31,723 nucleotides of DNA, taken from positions 1 through 31,723 of the forward strand of contig JALOPT010000012.1 in NCBI GenBank assembly GCA_025453715.1, given 5' to 3'. The notes under the pieces are model-generated. The model was not told the DNA's origin, searched no databases, and saw only the letters and a program-made list of their open reading frames with translations. Both the position numbers and the translations under genes were made by a program. The stretch is from Methanoregulaceae archaeon (GTDB taxonomy: Archaea > Halobacteriota > Methanomicrobia > Methanomicrobiales > Methanospirillaceae). Positions 17,770 through 22,930 of this stretch are shown here, piece by piece. The first letter of the stretch is position 1. Each line of letters starts with the position of its first letter.

Positions 17770-18363
17770 TCAGAATTTTAATTGTGACAATGCATGGTAG
17801 ACCATCTTCCGGTATGCAACCGGGTCAATATGGTATTTTTCGATTGCATGCGCTGAATCGGGGCCCGGAGTTGGATTATCCAGGCGATCTAACGTGGCCT
17901 TTGCCGTGTCGAGGACCCAGCAGTCCCTGATCTCGCGGTCGACAATCGTGATGGACTCTGCCCTGACCGAAACGAGGACCGTGCCATCCGGGGTCTCGTA
18001 TATCGTCGGTTTCCCAACAACTGCGACGAATGCAGGTGGTTCTATCCGGGCCATCTGCTGCATCGCCTCAGGCTGGTAACTTCCGGCAACAACGAAGAAG
18101 GTACCGGTCGGGTCAACAATCCGTGCCCGGTAAAACATGTTCTGTTCCCCCTGGCGTTTCTTTTCCGTCATTGATCCGACAAGGAATACCCTGTTACACC
18201 TCTCCCCGGTAGGCAGGAGGACATAGGAAGGACTCTTTTCATCAGTCCCGTCACGGAACTGCTCCCTGATCTCGCGGAGCTCACCAGCGAATACCCTCTT
18301 GGCCGGTTCACGTTCGAACATGGTCTCCCGTTTTGGAAAACCTCCGGCTGATGGCGTACTCAT
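17770..18363 (-). CDS. RPA-associated OB-fold protein
   Basis: REPAKRVFAGEL, LPTGERCNRVFLVG, RIVDPTGTF motifs; ATGA overlap with rpa. Confidence 0.88.
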   Translation of the reverse strand: MSTPSAGGFPKRETMFEREPAKRVFAGELREIREQFRDGTDEKSPSYVLLPTGERCNRVFLVGSMTEKKRQGEQNMFYRARIVDPTGTFFVVAGSYQPEAMQQMARIEPPAFVAVVGKPTIYETPDGTVLVSVRAESITIVDREIRDCWVLDTAKATLDRLDNPTPGPDSAHAIEKYHIDPVAYRKMVYHALSQLKF

Positions 18364-19589
18364 GAAACCTCGCCTCCCGTGCGGTTTAATAATTCAGCAA
18401 GCAGCATTGGATCGAAATGGATGCGCTCACAGGAATTGACGATCATTCGCCGGTCGATCTCTCTCCCCTCGCACTTCAGGTAGCGGCCCAGGATCTTTTC
18501 TCTCATGCGCAAAAATACCTCATCCATACCGAGCGGGTTGTTCTCTGCGAGTTCCTTCGATTCTTCAAGGGTCATACCCGTGAGTGACTCCACGACCTCA
18601 CGTTGTACCAGCACCTCTTCCGTGCGGGCCCCGTTATCCAGCCAGCCCTTGATCCGGAGGTCGTAGTTAAATTTCGGTTGCATTTCATGGACCGGGCAGT
18701 AATTCTGCCGGGATAACACCCGGTTACACCCCTCGACCGTGCACCGTTTTATCAGCCCTGAACCTGGTGCAATATGCACCAGTGACCCCTGGAATGCAGC
18801 TGTACCTGAAGAAACGGCAATATCTCCTTCTTCAGCGACAATGTTCGCCGTATTCATGTTCAGGGAGTAACGTCCGTTAAACTCGTCAACCAGGGCGTAA
18901 TAAATATTATACACGCTGCCCGGGGTAAGGCGTTCTTTTCCCTCTTCTTTCCAGGTGACAAATTTTACTGTCCCTGTCTCATCGCCAAGAAGCCCGGACT
19001 GGAGCATCCGGTCATGGGTTACGTCCCATTCCTGGATCATCTTAGCACGGACACTGGCGACACCCGCCGTCAGTTCGGCGATTGGCATCATAACGGGGAT
19101 TAAAACCCCGTCATCTTCAAGTTCTTTCACGGTTGTTCCGGAATGAACTTTAAGGCTGAGAGCACCCTTGAATTCATCTACCACAGCGGACTCAAATCGG
19201 TACCATGAGTCCTTCCTGATCTCCGGGACTGATGCTTTCGACCAGATCACAAACCTGATTGCTCCTGAAGCGTCTGCGATGATCCCGGAATAGGCGATCG
19301 ATGGTGAAGGTGAATGGCCAAGCGCGACGACCTTCCCCTCGATCGTGACCCATTCCTCCGGGCTGACCGAGTTGATCTGTTTCTTATCCACAGGACCGGC
19401 GCCACCACCAAGGGGGATGCCATAATCACGCGCAATATCATACAATACCGTCCGCTCGGCATCGGCCGGCTGGACCCCGAACTCCTCAATAAGGCGGCGC
19501 AGTTTCTGTTCAATCTTTGATTTATCTGCCGCATGTCCTTTTGACTCAATTTTTTGGGAGATTCTGTCAACAATCTGGGAAATATCCAT
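18360..19589 (-). CDS. rpa: Replication protein A (multi-OB with zinc finger)
   Basis: OB folds (GIIADASGAIRF, GLLGDETGTVKF), Zn finger CTVEGC...YCPVH and DLRIKGWLDNG. Confidence 0.93.
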   Translation of the reverse strand: MDISQIVDRISQKIESKGHAADKSKIEQKLRRLIEEFGVQPADAERTVLYDIARDYGIPLGGGAGPVDKKQINSVSPEEWVTIEGKVVALGHSPSPSIAYSGIIADASGAIRFVIWSKASVPEIRKDSWYRFESAVVDEFKGALSLKVHSGTTVKELEDDGVLIPVMMPIAELTAGVASVRAKMIQEWDVTHDRMLQSGLLGDETGTVKFVTWKEEGKERLTPGSVYNIYYALVDEFNGRYSLNMNTANIVAEEGDIAVSSGTAAFQGSLVHIAPGSGLIKRCTVEGCNRVLSRQNYCPVHEMQPKFNYDLRIKGWLDNGARTEEVLVQREVVESLTGMTLEESKELAENNPLGMDEVFLRMREKILGRYLKCEGREIDRRMIVNSCERIHFDPMLLAELLNRTGGEVS

Positions 19590-19733: not shown

Positions 19734-19925
19734 ATGACAATAACAGCAGATAGCACCATCTATGATCTTCTAAAAGCCAAACCAGAATCATCCGAGGTTT
19801 TATTTAAGTTTGGAATGGGGTGCGTGGGATGTGCGATAGCCCGCGGGGAAACGATCCGTGAAGCAGCCGAGGCCCATGGTGTCCCGCTGGACGAGCTCGT
19901 CGCAGCACTCGGGATATCAGCATAA
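19734..19925 (+). CDS. DUF1858 domain protein (hybrid-cluster-associated redox disulfide domain)
   Basis: FGMGCVGC...ETIREAAEAHG..LDEL signature; TTTAAG about 25 nt upstream. Confidence 0.92.
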   Translation: MTITADSTIYDLLKAKPESSEVLFKFGMGCVGCAIARGETIREAAEAHGVPLDELVAALGISA

Positions 19926-19933
19926 ACCCGGTT

Positions 19934-20797
19934 TTATTCTGTTTTTCCGATTTTTTTCAATTCTTCAAGCGAGGCTTCCGGGTGACGCTGAAGGTAATCT
20001 GCATGTTGTGGTGTATGGAGCAGTGTGCACCGGCTGCAGTTCCAGACCGTCCCTCCGTGTGAACCGTTTACCCACTGGCCAAGTGTCTCATCCCTGCAGG
20101 GATAGAACGGGCAATAACAGTAATCACACCTCTGACCGGGAAAATGACACGGGAAATACGGGCACTCCTCCGGACGCCACCGGACAAAATGGCCGCCCCC
20201 GAGCCTGGAGTACACATACAGTGCAGGGCCTGTCCCCTTAACGTTCTGTGCCAGTGCATGAGGAAGGCCGAACAGGACACACTCGGACACCCGCCACCCG
20301 GCTTCTGACTGAAGTCCTGCCTCCTGGTGAGCTGGTACTCCCTCCCCTGCAACAATGACATGGTCTTCTGAAGCAGCCGGGAATGGTAAGCCCGCGTCAA
20401 TAAGGGCCCGGGCTTTTGCACTCGTCACCGTTACGATCATCTGCAGGAGTGCATTCTCTGCAATTCCTTCACCCGAAAAAACAACTACCGTGATATGGTC
20501 AGGCTGAATTTCGTTACCGCTTGATGCGAGGATAAAGACGGTTATATAATCATACTGCAGAATGCAAAGGCGCCGGATATCATTCCCCGAAACGAGACCA
20601 AAAAAATCCCCGGGAAGGCCTTCACGTGCAACATGGAGCGTTATATCTCTGCAGGGGTCCCCGACTGGTTCAGGGGACTTCGCCGGGGAGGAGATCAAAA
20701 CGGTCGAAACAGGACGAAGTCCTCCGCACGGCCCGGTACTTGCAGCAGAAAATGAGCCCCTGATAAAAAGTGTGTCGCTCCTGATATAATATTTCAT
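19934..20797 (-). CDS. CbiZ (adenosylcobinamide amidohydrolase)-like domain, degenerate, fused to a Cys-rich small domain
   Basis: N-terminus (TLFIRG..AASTG..GG, CILQYDYITVF) resembles methanomicrobial CbiZ-like proteins as recalled; C-terminal CPYFPCH...CDYCYCPFYPC...CSRCTLLH Cys-rich domain. Confidence 0.8.
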   Translation of the reverse strand: MKYYIRSDTLFIRGSFSAASTGPCGGLRPVSTVLISSPAKSPEPVGDPCRDITLHVAREGLPGDFFGLVSGNDIRRLCILQYDYITVFILASSGNEIQPDHITVVVFSGEGIAENALLQMIVTVTSAKARALIDAGLPFPAASEDHVIVAGEGVPAHQEAGLQSEAGWRVSECVLFGLPHALAQNVKGTGPALYVYSRLGGGHFVRWRPEECPYFPCHFPGQRCDYCYCPFYPCRDETLGQWVNGSHGGTVWNCSRCTLLHTPQHADYLQRHPEASLEELKKIGKTE

Positions 20798-20815: not shown

Positions 20816-21178
20816 TTATGCCACGGTATAACGGACCCGGTCCTTTAATTCCTGCTGCTTCCCGGCATTCCACCCGGAAACGTCCTGGAGGTACCCGGTG
20901 ACCCTGCTAATCTGGACAACATCATGGGAACCGCATTCCGGACATACGGCGGCATGGCAGAGTGGACAATAATCGATCCCTGAAAGGATCTCGTGGGAGC
21001 AGTGACAATGGTCAAGGGGGCACATAATCTCAAGGTGCTCTTCACCACATTTCGGGCATGGTGTCTCATCGACAATGAGGTGGCAGGTATGGCACTTGTA
21101 CCGCCGTTCGGCACTTGGAATATCTTCAAGGAGCTTGTACTTTTCTGCAATTTTTCTCTGGTCTGCGGTCCAATCCAT
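20816..21178 (-). CDS. Stand-alone NrdD-type glycyl-radical domain with extra zinc ribbons (120 aa)
   Basis: CPLC...[36 protein letters not shown] matches the class III RNR C-terminus; 11 Cys in total; own TATA (TTTAAA, 21202-21207) about 25 nt upstream. Confidence 0.88.
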
Positions 21179-21284
21179 ACTATCAGATAGAATGCCATCC
21201 TTTTAAACTTTTAGACCGTTCAGGGAGAGTTTTCCGCCTCAGTAGACTCATAGGGTTCATCTTTTTGTCAGTCTTCCTTTCTCA

Positions 21285-21920
21285 TCACTGGCGGATCCCT
21301 GCAAACTGCGATGCAGCCTTTTCCGGATCTTCTGCCTCATAAATCGCACGGCCGATAATAACCCCGTCAACAATCCCTGCAATTGTTAAAAGGTCTCCGC
21401 CCTGAGCCCCCACGCCTGGGGAATAAATTTTGAGGTCCCCGATAAGTTCTTTCAGGGTAGCAATGCGCTCGGGCCTTGTTGCAGGGGCAATAATACCATC
21501 CGCGTCGCACTCCTTCGCAAGCACGGCAATTCTCTCGGCGATACCCCCGTGGAAAAAATCTGTGGCCCCGGGATGGCTCATCTCGGTCACCACGAAACAG
21601 TCGCCGCCGTATTCCCTTGCAACATCAACACACGCTGCGACAGAGTCGCGGCCGGTAAACCCCTGGCATATCAGCGCATCATACCCCGATGTAAATACTT
21701 CTTCTGCGATGAGCCTGCTGGTATTCGGGATGTCAGCTACTTTAAAATCTGCGATTAGCGGTAAATCGAAGTCCCCGAGATCGTCGGCTATTGAGATCCC
21801 TGCGGCGAGCACGAGTGGATACCCGATTTTAATCGCGTCAATATGCCGGGCGCATCGGGAAGCAATTGCCAGTGCATTCTCTTTAGTTGTAACATCTAGT
21901 GCGAGTATCAGTGAAGTCAT
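21285..21920 (-). CDS. pyrF: Orotidine-5'-phosphate decarboxylase
   Basis: LILALDV, IKIG, DFKVADIPNT, SPGVGAQGG and IIGRAIY motifs; ATGA overlap with dys. Confidence 0.97.
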   Translation of the reverse strand: MTSLILALDVTTKENALAIASRCARHIDAIKIGYPLVLAAGISIADDLGDFDLPLIADFKVADIPNTSRLIAEEVFTSGYDALICQGFTGRDSVAACVDVAREYGGDCFVVTEMSHPGATDFFHGGIAERIAVLAKECDADGIIAPATRPERIATLKELIGDLKIYSPGVGAQGGDLLTIAGIVDGVIIGRAIYEAEDPEKAASQFAGIRQ

Positions 21921-22852
21921 TGTTCGAGCCTCTCCAGCACTGCTGCGACCATGAAGGGGAGGAGGACTGTCGCATCGCCATAGACCGTCACAGCTGATGC
22001 CTCCTCGGTGATCTTGCCCCACGAGCGGGCCTCGTCAAGCGTGGCCCCCGAAAGGCCGCCAAGGTCCGGCCGGTCACCGGTCAACTGAACCGCATGGGAG
22101 AAACCGTTTTCGGTCATCAGCATGCTCTGCAGGATATAATTCTTCGGCACTCCACCACCGACCAGCACTGCCCCTGCTTTTTTTGCCATGAAACAGCGGT
22201 CGAGCAGCATCGGCATATCCTTAAACGCGTCCACGGTGACATGCCCTGTCTGGGAGAATAACCAGTACTGGAGGCCAATCATGGAGTCCTGGATTGCAGG
22301 GCAGAATACCGGGACTGATTTTTTTGCAGCGGTCGAAAGGATACCTGATCCAAGAGATGATCCGATGCGGGCAAGCAGCTCGCTTATTGAAATCGTGGAT
22401 CTTTCCGGGAGCCCCGAATAGATCCCCTGCATGAACTCTTCGAACTTTATAAACGCGTCATTCGGGAGGAAAACATCATAAATCCGGTTTATCTCCTCAT
22501 GTCTCAGTTCAACATCCGAGCATAGCGCATCACCGTGATAATGGCGGCACCCGATTGCTTCGATAATGTCGTGGGTGAGATTTGCACCGGTCGAGACAAG
22601 GACATCGATATGTCCCGCATCGATGAGGTCCCGTACGATCCCACCCATTCCGGCAGGTACCATCGCACCCGCGAGGCCGAAAAATTTCGTGACTTCGGGG
22701 TCCCGGAGCATCTTTTCGTAAATGCAGATGGCACGGTACAGCGCACCGCCGTTATATGCCCCAGCCCGCCCCATCTGTTCAGCGAGTTCTCCTACGGTCA
22801 TCCCTGCTTTCAGGCGAACCTGGCTGACCGGCACACGGCATTCGTGACTCAT
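21917..22852 (-). CDS. dys: Deoxyhypusine synthase
   Basis: GAMVPAGM, STGANLTHD, GGGVPKN, LSGATLDEARSWGK (active-site Lys); ATG 22852 follows GAGGTG. Confidence 0.95.
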   Translation of the reverse strand: MSHECRVPVSQVRLKAGMTVGELAEQMGRAGAYNGGALYRAICIYEKMLRDPEVTKFFGLAGAMVPAGMGGIVRDLIDAGHIDVLVSTGANLTHDIIEAIGCRHYHGDALCSDVELRHEEINRIYDVFLPNDAFIKFEEFMQGIYSGLPERSTISISELLARIGSSLGSGILSTAAKKSVPVFCPAIQDSMIGLQYWLFSQTGHVTVDAFKDMPMLLDRCFMAKKAGAVLVGGGVPKNYILQSMLMTENGFSHAVQLTGDRPDLGGLSGATLDEARSWGKITEEASAVTVYGDATVLLPFMVAAVLERLEQ

Positions 22853-22930
22853 GGGCACCTCATAAGGATGGTGAATTATTGATCGTGTCCAAGGATAACA
22901 CCTTCCCGGAAATGCCCGGCCTGCACTATA

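Follow-up and report, generated by a model that had tools for sequence, protein, structure and literature searches.

The stretch of DNA analysed here (the window) comprises 31,723 nucleotides, positions 1 to 31,723 of contig JALOPT010000012.1 in the GenBank assembly GCA_025453715.1 of a Methanoregulaceae archaeon (order Methanomicrobiales). It contains a gene for a protein of 120 amino acids (aa), here called mini-NrdD, which we propose to be the radical-bearing small subunit of a class III (anaerobic) ribonucleotide reductase (RNR) that is naturally split into two chains. The original prediction, which was made from the letters of this DNA, had described a complete and autonomous NrdD-derived glycyl-radical gene, and our analysis confirmed the open reading frame (ORF) together with all motifs that had been quoted. 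These motifs are C29xxC32...C41xxC44, C53-P-L-D-H-C-H-C60-S-H62, C71xxC74-x4-C79xxC82, R92-V-T-G95-Y and a terminal-helix motif starting at W103, and the codon of the putative radical residue Gly95 was found at 20894-20896. As had also been claimed, the last part of the protein corresponds to the C-terminus of class III RNRs, and about 45 residues match the NrdD end in two profiles. Pfam NRDD (PF13597) aligned its positions 517-562 of 562 with residues 65-117 (E 6.2e-15, 55 bits at a cut-off of 26 bits) and TIGR02487 matched over positions 540-581 of 581 (E 3.7e-15). This resemblance of mini-NrdD to the NrdD C-terminus is, at the sequence level, far beyond chance. PF01228 (Gly_radical) was not among the Pfam matches of the protein.

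The zinc-ribbon N-terminus of mini-NrdD gave weak matches to generic zinc-ribbon families, and the labels of the family in the source records vary (anaerobic RNR, oxidoreductase, RNA polymerase RPABC4/Spt4-like zinc ribbon, hypothetical). Such matches and names would fit a scenario in which the protein is a radical carrier or a zinc-finger factor for something other than NrdD. However, all zinc-ribbon matches remained under the family cut-offs whereas NRDD was well above its own, and together with the genomic data described below these findings make such a role very improbable.

For the 5' flank of the gene, an own TATA box had been predicted, and this proposal was supported. On the gene strand, a TTTAAAA box is located 22 nucleotides (nt) upstream of the ATG, with a purine-rich stretch before it. 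In 24/24 orthologous loci an A/T-rich box was found at the same distance from the start codon, and because of this conservation it is plausible that mini-NrdD has its own, still putative, promoter. The 22-nt spacing would imply a very short leader or none. The coordinates of the features are given in Table 1.

Table 1. Features of the window around the mini-NrdD gene (BRE, the purine-rich element next to the TATA-like box; OMP and DUF1858 genes are treated in the text)
Feature	Position	Strand	Basis
Mini-NrdD gene, 120 aa, proposed small (glycyl-radical) subunit of a split class III RNR	20816..21178	-	ORF, Pfam NRDD; stop codon 20816-20818
Mini-NrdD residues 1-52, N-terminal helix (about 5-13) and predicted first zinc ribbon (C29, C32, C41, C44)	21023..21178	-	alignments, models
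Mini-NrdD residues 53-85, second Cys/His-rich region (C53, C60, H62, C71, C74, C79, C82, H85)	20924..21022	-	conserved columns
Mini-NrdD residues 86-120, beta strand D-V-V-Q-I-S, putative radical loop R-V-T-G95-Y, C-terminal helix	20819..20923	-	NrdD alignment
Putative promoter, TATA-like TTTAAAA (21201-21207) and purine-rich BRE-like CTAAAAG (21208-21214)	21201..21214	-	sequence
CbiZ-like protein	19934-20797	-	weak PF01955 (E 2e-9); intact C-terminal 'Cysteine-rich small domain' PF04071 (E 5e-29)
Frame of the syntenic block around mini-NrdD	19734-19925	+	
Frame of the syntenic block around mini-NrdD	18360-19589	-	
Frame of the syntenic block around mini-NrdD	21285-22858	-	

Sequence comparison yielded 340 related small proteins, most of them exactly 120 aa long, with 57-95% identity among the 120 listed. 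Their source names (Methanoregula, Methanofollis, Methanolacinia, Methanospirillum, Methanogenium, Methanoculleaceae) place the family in Methanomicrobiales. Within the close family C29, C32, C41, C44, C53, C60, H62, C74, C79 and H85 are invariant, C71 and C82 are kept at 90% or more, and the same invariance is seen for S91 to Y96, K107, E110, K112, D113 and R114. The loop R92-V-T-G95-Y96 was identical across 31 family members. When the alignment was broadened, most ligand and loop residues were still invariant or nearly so (H62, S91, V93 and K112 were not), and C29, C32, C41 and C44 were invariant in both alignments. At E 1e-10 or better, an exhaustive search retrieved about 100 cluster representatives, and the length of nearly all of them was 60-210 aa. 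Many of these align with mini-NrdD from the N-terminal helix onward (40-55% identity). Stand-alone peptides of 36-90 aa were retrieved as well, and their alignment with mini-NrdD is confined to residues ~77-119. For 24 ungapped orthologues we obtained a dN/dS ratio of about 0.16 overall, with medians of 0.22 for codons 1-78 and 0.06 for codons 79-120, and as synonymous sites are close to saturation, these figures are rough. Both halves of the gene are under purifying selection. The four plus eight Cys/His ligands would leave room for three metal sites, and the region between C53 and H85 appears to hold ligands enough for two of them.

The genome from which the window was taken is represented by a 1.75-Mb assembly of 224 contigs that is 65.6% complete. 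The original prediction had proposed to search it for a full-length nrdD and for nrdG, and this search had a mixed outcome: NrdG is present, and the only NrdD found lacks the C-terminus. The sole other NRDD match of this genome is a 727-aa gene on contig C173, outside the window, which covers profile positions 1-511 only. Its product stops a short way past F-T-R-D-L-T-V-S-L and has neither a CxxC pair nor RVxGY at this end. The N-terminal region can be aligned with the corresponding part of a solved NrdD, and the catalytic barrel is present. Barrel and radical domain are not covalently joined, since the barrel is encoded on another contig and ends before the domain. The finger loop of this large subunit reads S-C-Y-Q-C413-C414-A-Y and is invariant in the large-subunit alignment. 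An 89-aa glutaredoxin/NrdH-like gene (CPNC motif) directly abuts the start of the large-subunit gene, and by its finger loop Q-C-C-A without an upstream Met and by this adjacent redoxin the large subunit appears to fit the NrdD3 subtype. On a third contig we found an NrdG-type activase (240-aa ORF, CxxxCxxC), which scored 160 bits with TIGR02495 at a cut-off of 131. In contrast to the earlier idea that mini-NrdD may carry a radical for another enzyme, a search of this genome and of four closed relatives found no glycyl-radical enzyme of the pyruvate formate-lyase (PFL) type (PF01228 or PF02901) and no other glycyl-radical barrel. Class I/II RNR (PF02867) was not found in the 65.6%-complete assembly, which is probably an assembly gap.

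To define the break point we used a one-piece NrdD of Methanosarcinales (P0125, 737 aa) as fused comparator. The large subunit shares 71% identity with this protein over residues 19-706 (688 residues), up to F-T-R-D-M-T-L-C-M-D-D-F-H, and the segment C79-V119 of mini-NrdD shares 66% identity with the equivalent residues 697-737 (C79 = C697). In fused relatives the metal site reads C...H...CxxC, and since the large subunit reaches 706 whereas the aligned part of mini-NrdD begins at the equivalent of 697, the fission cut through this metal site. Coverage of the NRDD profile is complementary (1-511 by the large gene, 517-562 by the small one). The large subunits keep a degenerate first half-site, T-V-[S/C]-L-x-Q-F-[H/R/K], which is followed by about 20 variable residues. 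In mini-NrdD, the pair C71/C74 stands four residues upstream of C79/C82, and although the entire motif is present and conserved, only C79xxC82 aligns with the zinc site of the fused enzyme; judged by its position, C71xxC74 may replace the half-site left in the large subunit. Mini-NrdD would thereby supply the very part that its large partner is missing: the CxxC-x4-CxxC metal site, the beta strand, the RVTGY loop and the terminal helix. For residues 1-78 neither the word-based nor the exhaustive search gave a counterpart in fused NrdDs, with alignments starting only from ~78, and a search for fused forms containing this N-terminal module found none. One candidate (P0122, 612 aa), which combines a PriA helicase with the last ~45 residues of mini-NrdD, was rejected as a fused form. 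It is most likely an assembly chimera, because the junction falls at a C-P-E-C-G-S motif common to the Cys-rich region of PriA and to mini-NrdD and because it was seen on a single 3.3-kb contig.

A split chain might also be joined again at the protein level, and inteins are common in this NrdD clade. We therefore considered protein trans-splicing, in which a split intein would link the two products to a one-piece NrdD. However, the extension of the large subunit (~20 variable residues) is far too short for an N-intein, and the N-terminus of mini-NrdD has no Pfam intein match; it is a conserved zinc-ribbon module that lacks a His-Asn followed by Cys/Ser/Thr before residue 79. Moreover, the inteins found reside at profile positions ~53 and ~263 and not at the break. 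Taken together, these findings make trans-splicing the least probable of the scenarios considered here.

Co-occurrence across Methanomicrobiales, as suggested by the original prediction, was profiled by scanning 121 genomes of the order for NRDD and a sample of 60 genomes (at least 90% complete) for mini-NrdD and NrdG. NRDD matches were obtained in 106/121 genomes, and in five of the six families all 96 of 96 genomes had them, the tail-less NrdD and mini-NrdD being found together. All large-subunit matches listed break off at profile position ~510-516, separate small frames cover positions 503-562, and all twelve large-subunit tails that we read stop at the same point. In the 60-genome sample, mini-NrdD occurred once per genome in 55 and an NrdG orthologue was also found in 55, both being missing only in the genus g21 (0/5). 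Among 16 genomes of this genus only one gave an NRDD match, a degraded copy with internal stops, and the genus keeps a class II RNR. The unlinked genes for large NrdD, mini-NrdD and NrdG thus share one presence/absence pattern. In closed genomes the large and the small gene are separated by up to ~0.8 Mb; in G032 they map at 1.13 and 1.91 Mb and in G014 at 1.00 and 1.77 Mb. This identical phyletic pattern argues against a partner other than NrdD. Outside the order, the N-terminal module gave only two marginal matches (E 4e-4 and 9e-4) among about 250 genomes of the same phylum.

The copy number and the architecture of the large subunit vary in some of these genomes. The closed genome G046 carries two large-subunit copies of the same score 15 kb apart (C1:285076-286791 and 300796-302511) and one mini-NrdD gene only. 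In many relatives the large NrdD contains one or two inteins (profile ~53 and ~263), which extends the open frames to 1200-2000 aa; the copy in the genome of the window is intein-free. An example is the 1678-aa large subunit of relative G004 (L055 488-5524, plus strand), which carries Intein_splicing and LAGLIDADG domains.

On the basis of its size, which is similar to that of GrcA, and of its nature as a small stand-alone glycyl-radical domain, mini-NrdD had originally been considered a possible spare part of the GrcA/YfiD type that rescues an oxygen-damaged full-length NrdD. An NrdD without its own C-terminus had been named in advance as the finding that would speak against this idea, and the 727-aa protein is such an enzyme. 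In this genome we found no parent enzyme that has a radical domain of its own, and we therefore see no repair role for mini-NrdD. Relative G003 has an additional one-piece NrdD of 569 aa beside the split enzyme (C1:590703-592373, profile 1-560), a finding that would speak for a spare part. However, among the NRDD matches listed for the 106 genomes this gene is the sole complete one-piece copy, and its C-terminus shares only 41% identity over 49 residues with mini-NrdD. The second match that reaches the C-terminal profile positions, in genome G119, is degraded by internal stops. Furthermore, genomes without the tail-less large subunit also lack mini-NrdD. We therefore regard a function as spare part as highly unlikely.

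Additional context evidence, which is independent of the unlinked arrangement in Methanomicrobiales, came from more divergent lineages. On two metagenome contigs (L056 8001-10643 and L061 1736-5774) a mini-NrdD gene is followed by a glutaredoxin-like gene and then by a tail-less NrdD, the genes being adjacent or overlapping. The NrdDs of these clusters cover profile positions 1-513 and stop there, they have the tail G-Y-F-A-F-T-[R/K]-[D/E]-[L/I]-T-V-C plus about 10 residues, and their finger loop contains Q-C-C. One of the cluster contigs carries a radical-SAM gene 5 kb downstream, and one clustered gene of the divergent lineages carries an intein. The break point is the same as in the order, and the clusters suggest that the fission is older than the order, which kept redoxin and nrdD together and moved the mini-NrdD gene. 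The order of genes in the clusters, with mini-NrdD first, is unlike the outcome of a simple in-place fission. Clustering with nrdD is also hard to reconcile with a mini-NrdD that serves something other than this enzyme.

We next turned to structure models, including the modelling of mini-NrdD with C-terminally truncated NrdD that had been proposed initially. When mini-NrdD was modelled alone, the confidence values (pLDDT) were about 75-87 over residues 1-90 (81-87 for residues 1-52) and below 50 at the Gly loop (residues 94-98). A fold search of the Protein Data Bank with this model gave no match at E 0.001 or better, and generic zinc ribbons were the only structures returned. For the complex, the large subunit and mini-NrdD were each supplied as an alignment, and three runs and three controls were carried out. 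The interface score (ipSAE) of the complex was 0.84 (0.83-0.84 in the runs) vs. 0.00 for the best control. A score of 0.84 is reached by 58 of 80 solved complexes and by 2 of 110 mismatched pairs, a yardstick that is rough here since our own alignments were used. The partner pLDDT was at least 84, and at least 93% of the contacts agreed between runs. The modelled interface involves the finger loop (413-415) and the tail (695-708) of the large subunit and residues 86-120 of mini-NrdD, and it also takes in residues 28, 33-37, 42-43 and 58-69 of the N-terminal module. The tightest contacts were predicted between the retained tail of the large subunit (698-702) and residues 86-91 of mini-NrdD, and the Gly loop was placed beside the finger-loop cysteines.

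These data lead us to conclude, with a probability of roughly 0.85, that mini-NrdD is the regular radical-bearing small subunit of a naturally split class III RNR, for which we infer the radical, the activity, the metal content and the order of activation and docking. This conclusion is supported by homology, the split itself, co-occurrence and joint absence, purifying selection, clustering elsewhere and a complex model that passed its controls. The enzyme might work as follows. The unlinked radical-SAM activase NrdG would abstract a hydrogen atom from Gly95. The C-terminal 35 residues of mini-NrdD would then enter the large-subunit barrel, and their strand 86-91 would pair with tail 698-702. 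There, the glycyl radical would generate a thiyl radical on a finger-loop cysteine, ribonucleotide reduction would begin, and the neighbouring redoxin would re-reduce the active site. The 78 added N-terminal residues (helix, Cys4 zinc ribbon and further Cys/His ligands) may add contact surface in place of the covalent link that was lost.

Several points weigh against this conclusion. Its basis is wholly computational, and the dN/dS values are subject to the saturation mentioned above. A class II RNR is present in 57/61 genomes of the order, and therefore the split enzyme need not be essential. The joint absence of the three genes in g21 is a single evolutionary event, which should not be over-read. 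G003 carries its one-piece NrdD beside the split enzyme, and a second, one-piece NrdD may likewise sit in the missing part of the 65.6%-complete source genome. Finally, since structures of one-piece NrdDs have already been solved, the complex may have passed through likeness to them, and the model indicates that the pieces fit like the fused enzyme, which is not proof of binding.

If mini-NrdD is the regular small subunit, its detachment may also be adaptive. According to this refinement of our conclusion, NrdG activates free mini-NrdD, and a small subunit that has been cleaved by oxygen is exchanged while the barrel is reused. The cell would thereby gain what a GrcA-like repair system offers, with no need for an additional spare protein. 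Oxygen cuts glycyl-radical enzymes at the radical glycine, and the activase of PFL (PFL-AE) can act on free YfiD before docking (PMC13450708). The low pLDDT of the Gly loop would be compatible with a flexible loop that the activase can reach, and the gene, which has a conserved promoter-like box of its own and is not linked to the large gene, could be regulated separately. Two contigs with virus- or mobile-element-like genes also carry a long-form mini-NrdD on its own. On the other hand, gene fission can be fixed neutrally, mini-NrdD shares one operon with the large gene in other lineages, which does not suggest separate regulation, and the virus-like contexts are short contigs without a host link. 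Weighing these arguments, we consider such an exchange possible but rather unlikely. A more elaborate version, in which the detached domain is a consumable, is somewhat more doubtful still. Here, NrdG would charge free mini-NrdD, only this protein would be replaced after cleavage at Gly95 and an oxygen-exposed methanogen would save its costly 727-aa barrel; the N-terminal module would be a handle for docking or activase recognition and possibly a redox sensor, and the lone mini-NrdDs in virus-like surroundings would supply fresh cartridges. Replacement of oxygen-damaged radical subunits through detachment may be taken as a testable idea.

Glycyl-radical enzymes have been described as single chains, in which the C-terminal radical domain swings out to the activase and then back, and this tether hampers their study. 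The closest relatives of the split enzyme are the one-piece NrdD3-type enzymes of Methanosarcina, and NrdD of M. barkeri is reportedly coupled to an NrdH-like redoxin and a ferredoxin:disulfide reductase. P0125 and the split enzyme share the double-cysteine finger loop without preceding Met, and in both systems the gene directly upstream of nrdD codes for a glutaredoxin/NrdH-like protein and an NrdG-type activase is present. In contrast to the one-piece form, the split chain is broken inside the zinc-binding segment and its radical domain is encoded elsewhere in the genome. In addition, mini-NrdD has acquired its 78 N-terminal residues, a module that brings another Cys4 ribbon and more Cys/His ligands.

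Small stand-alone proteins with a radical loop that must dock into the barrel of a larger enzyme also occur in E. coli (GrcA/YfiD) and in phage T4 (Y06I), where they are autonomous cofactors for PFL. However, GrcA is of the PFL type (Pfam Gly_radical) whereas mini-NrdD is of the NrdD type, and the N-terminus of GrcA is disordered whereas that of mini-NrdD is conserved and zinc-rich. GrcA is found beside a PFL with a radical domain of its own and takes the place of this domain only after damage. The parent enzyme of mini-NrdD never has the domain, and for this reason mini-NrdD is, unlike GrcA, a primary subunit. In Pseudomonas aeruginosa, the split class II RNR NrdJa/NrdJb provides another precedent (Crona et al., 2015, cited in PMC9669993). 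The catalytic chain of this RNR is also naturally encoded as two polypeptides that must assemble, but it is a class II enzyme that uses adenosylcobalamin, it is split at another place and no radical-bearing domain is separated.

Two analyses from 2022, on insertions and extensions in RNRs, treat the radical domain of class III only as a C-terminal domain, and they cite a split class II enzyme but no split class III one. The literature that we searched, which left most subscription journals outside, contained no split class III RNR, and in agreement with the original prediction no functional study of mini-NrdD was found in it. A split class III RNR with an unlinked zinc-rich radical subunit would be a new form of a known enzyme. 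A 2026 review lists the replacement of radical subunits after oxygen damage as undetermined outside PFL, adding that whether others exist "is yet to be determined" (PMC13450708), and the split NrdD lets one ask whether such replacement occurs. A naturally separate radical domain also offers a ready system for trapping the complex of activase and radical domain and for measuring docking and exchange. Since the large gene looks truncated and the small gene is variously labelled, pathway reconstructions can misjudge the presence of class III RNR in this order.

Next to mini-NrdD lies a gene for a CbiZ-like protein, which begins 18 nt past the mini-NrdD stop codon. In most relatives the two genes overlap in ATGA, the ATG of the CbiZ-like gene sharing nucleotides with the TGA of mini-NrdD, and this arrangement suggests that they are probably co-transcribed. 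Co-transcription could be taken as a further hint at a partner other than NrdD. However, the CbiZ-like gene persists in the genus that lacks mini-NrdD: in 5/5 checked g21 genomes it is kept at 44-47% identity in another context. Since it is retained in a genus without the split RNR, it is not RNR-specific, and a functional link between the two neighbours was not supported.

The surrounding block (deoxyhypusine synthase, orotidine monophosphate (OMP) decarboxylase, mini-NrdD, the CbiZ-like gene, DUF1858 on the opposite strand and an RPA-like gene) is syntenic in most of the 24 loci, which belong to several families. The divergent long-form mini-NrdDs that occur alone among virus- or mobile-element-like genes (L059 3765-4133 and L060 5335-5790) have other neighbours. 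These include ParB_N, RhuM/ORF6C, an NrS1-1-type primase-polymerase domain and a Gly-rich giant protein, and on L059 the catalytic subunit of a ferredoxin-thioredoxin reductase (FeThRed_B) is encoded 1.6 kb upstream of the mini-NrdD gene.

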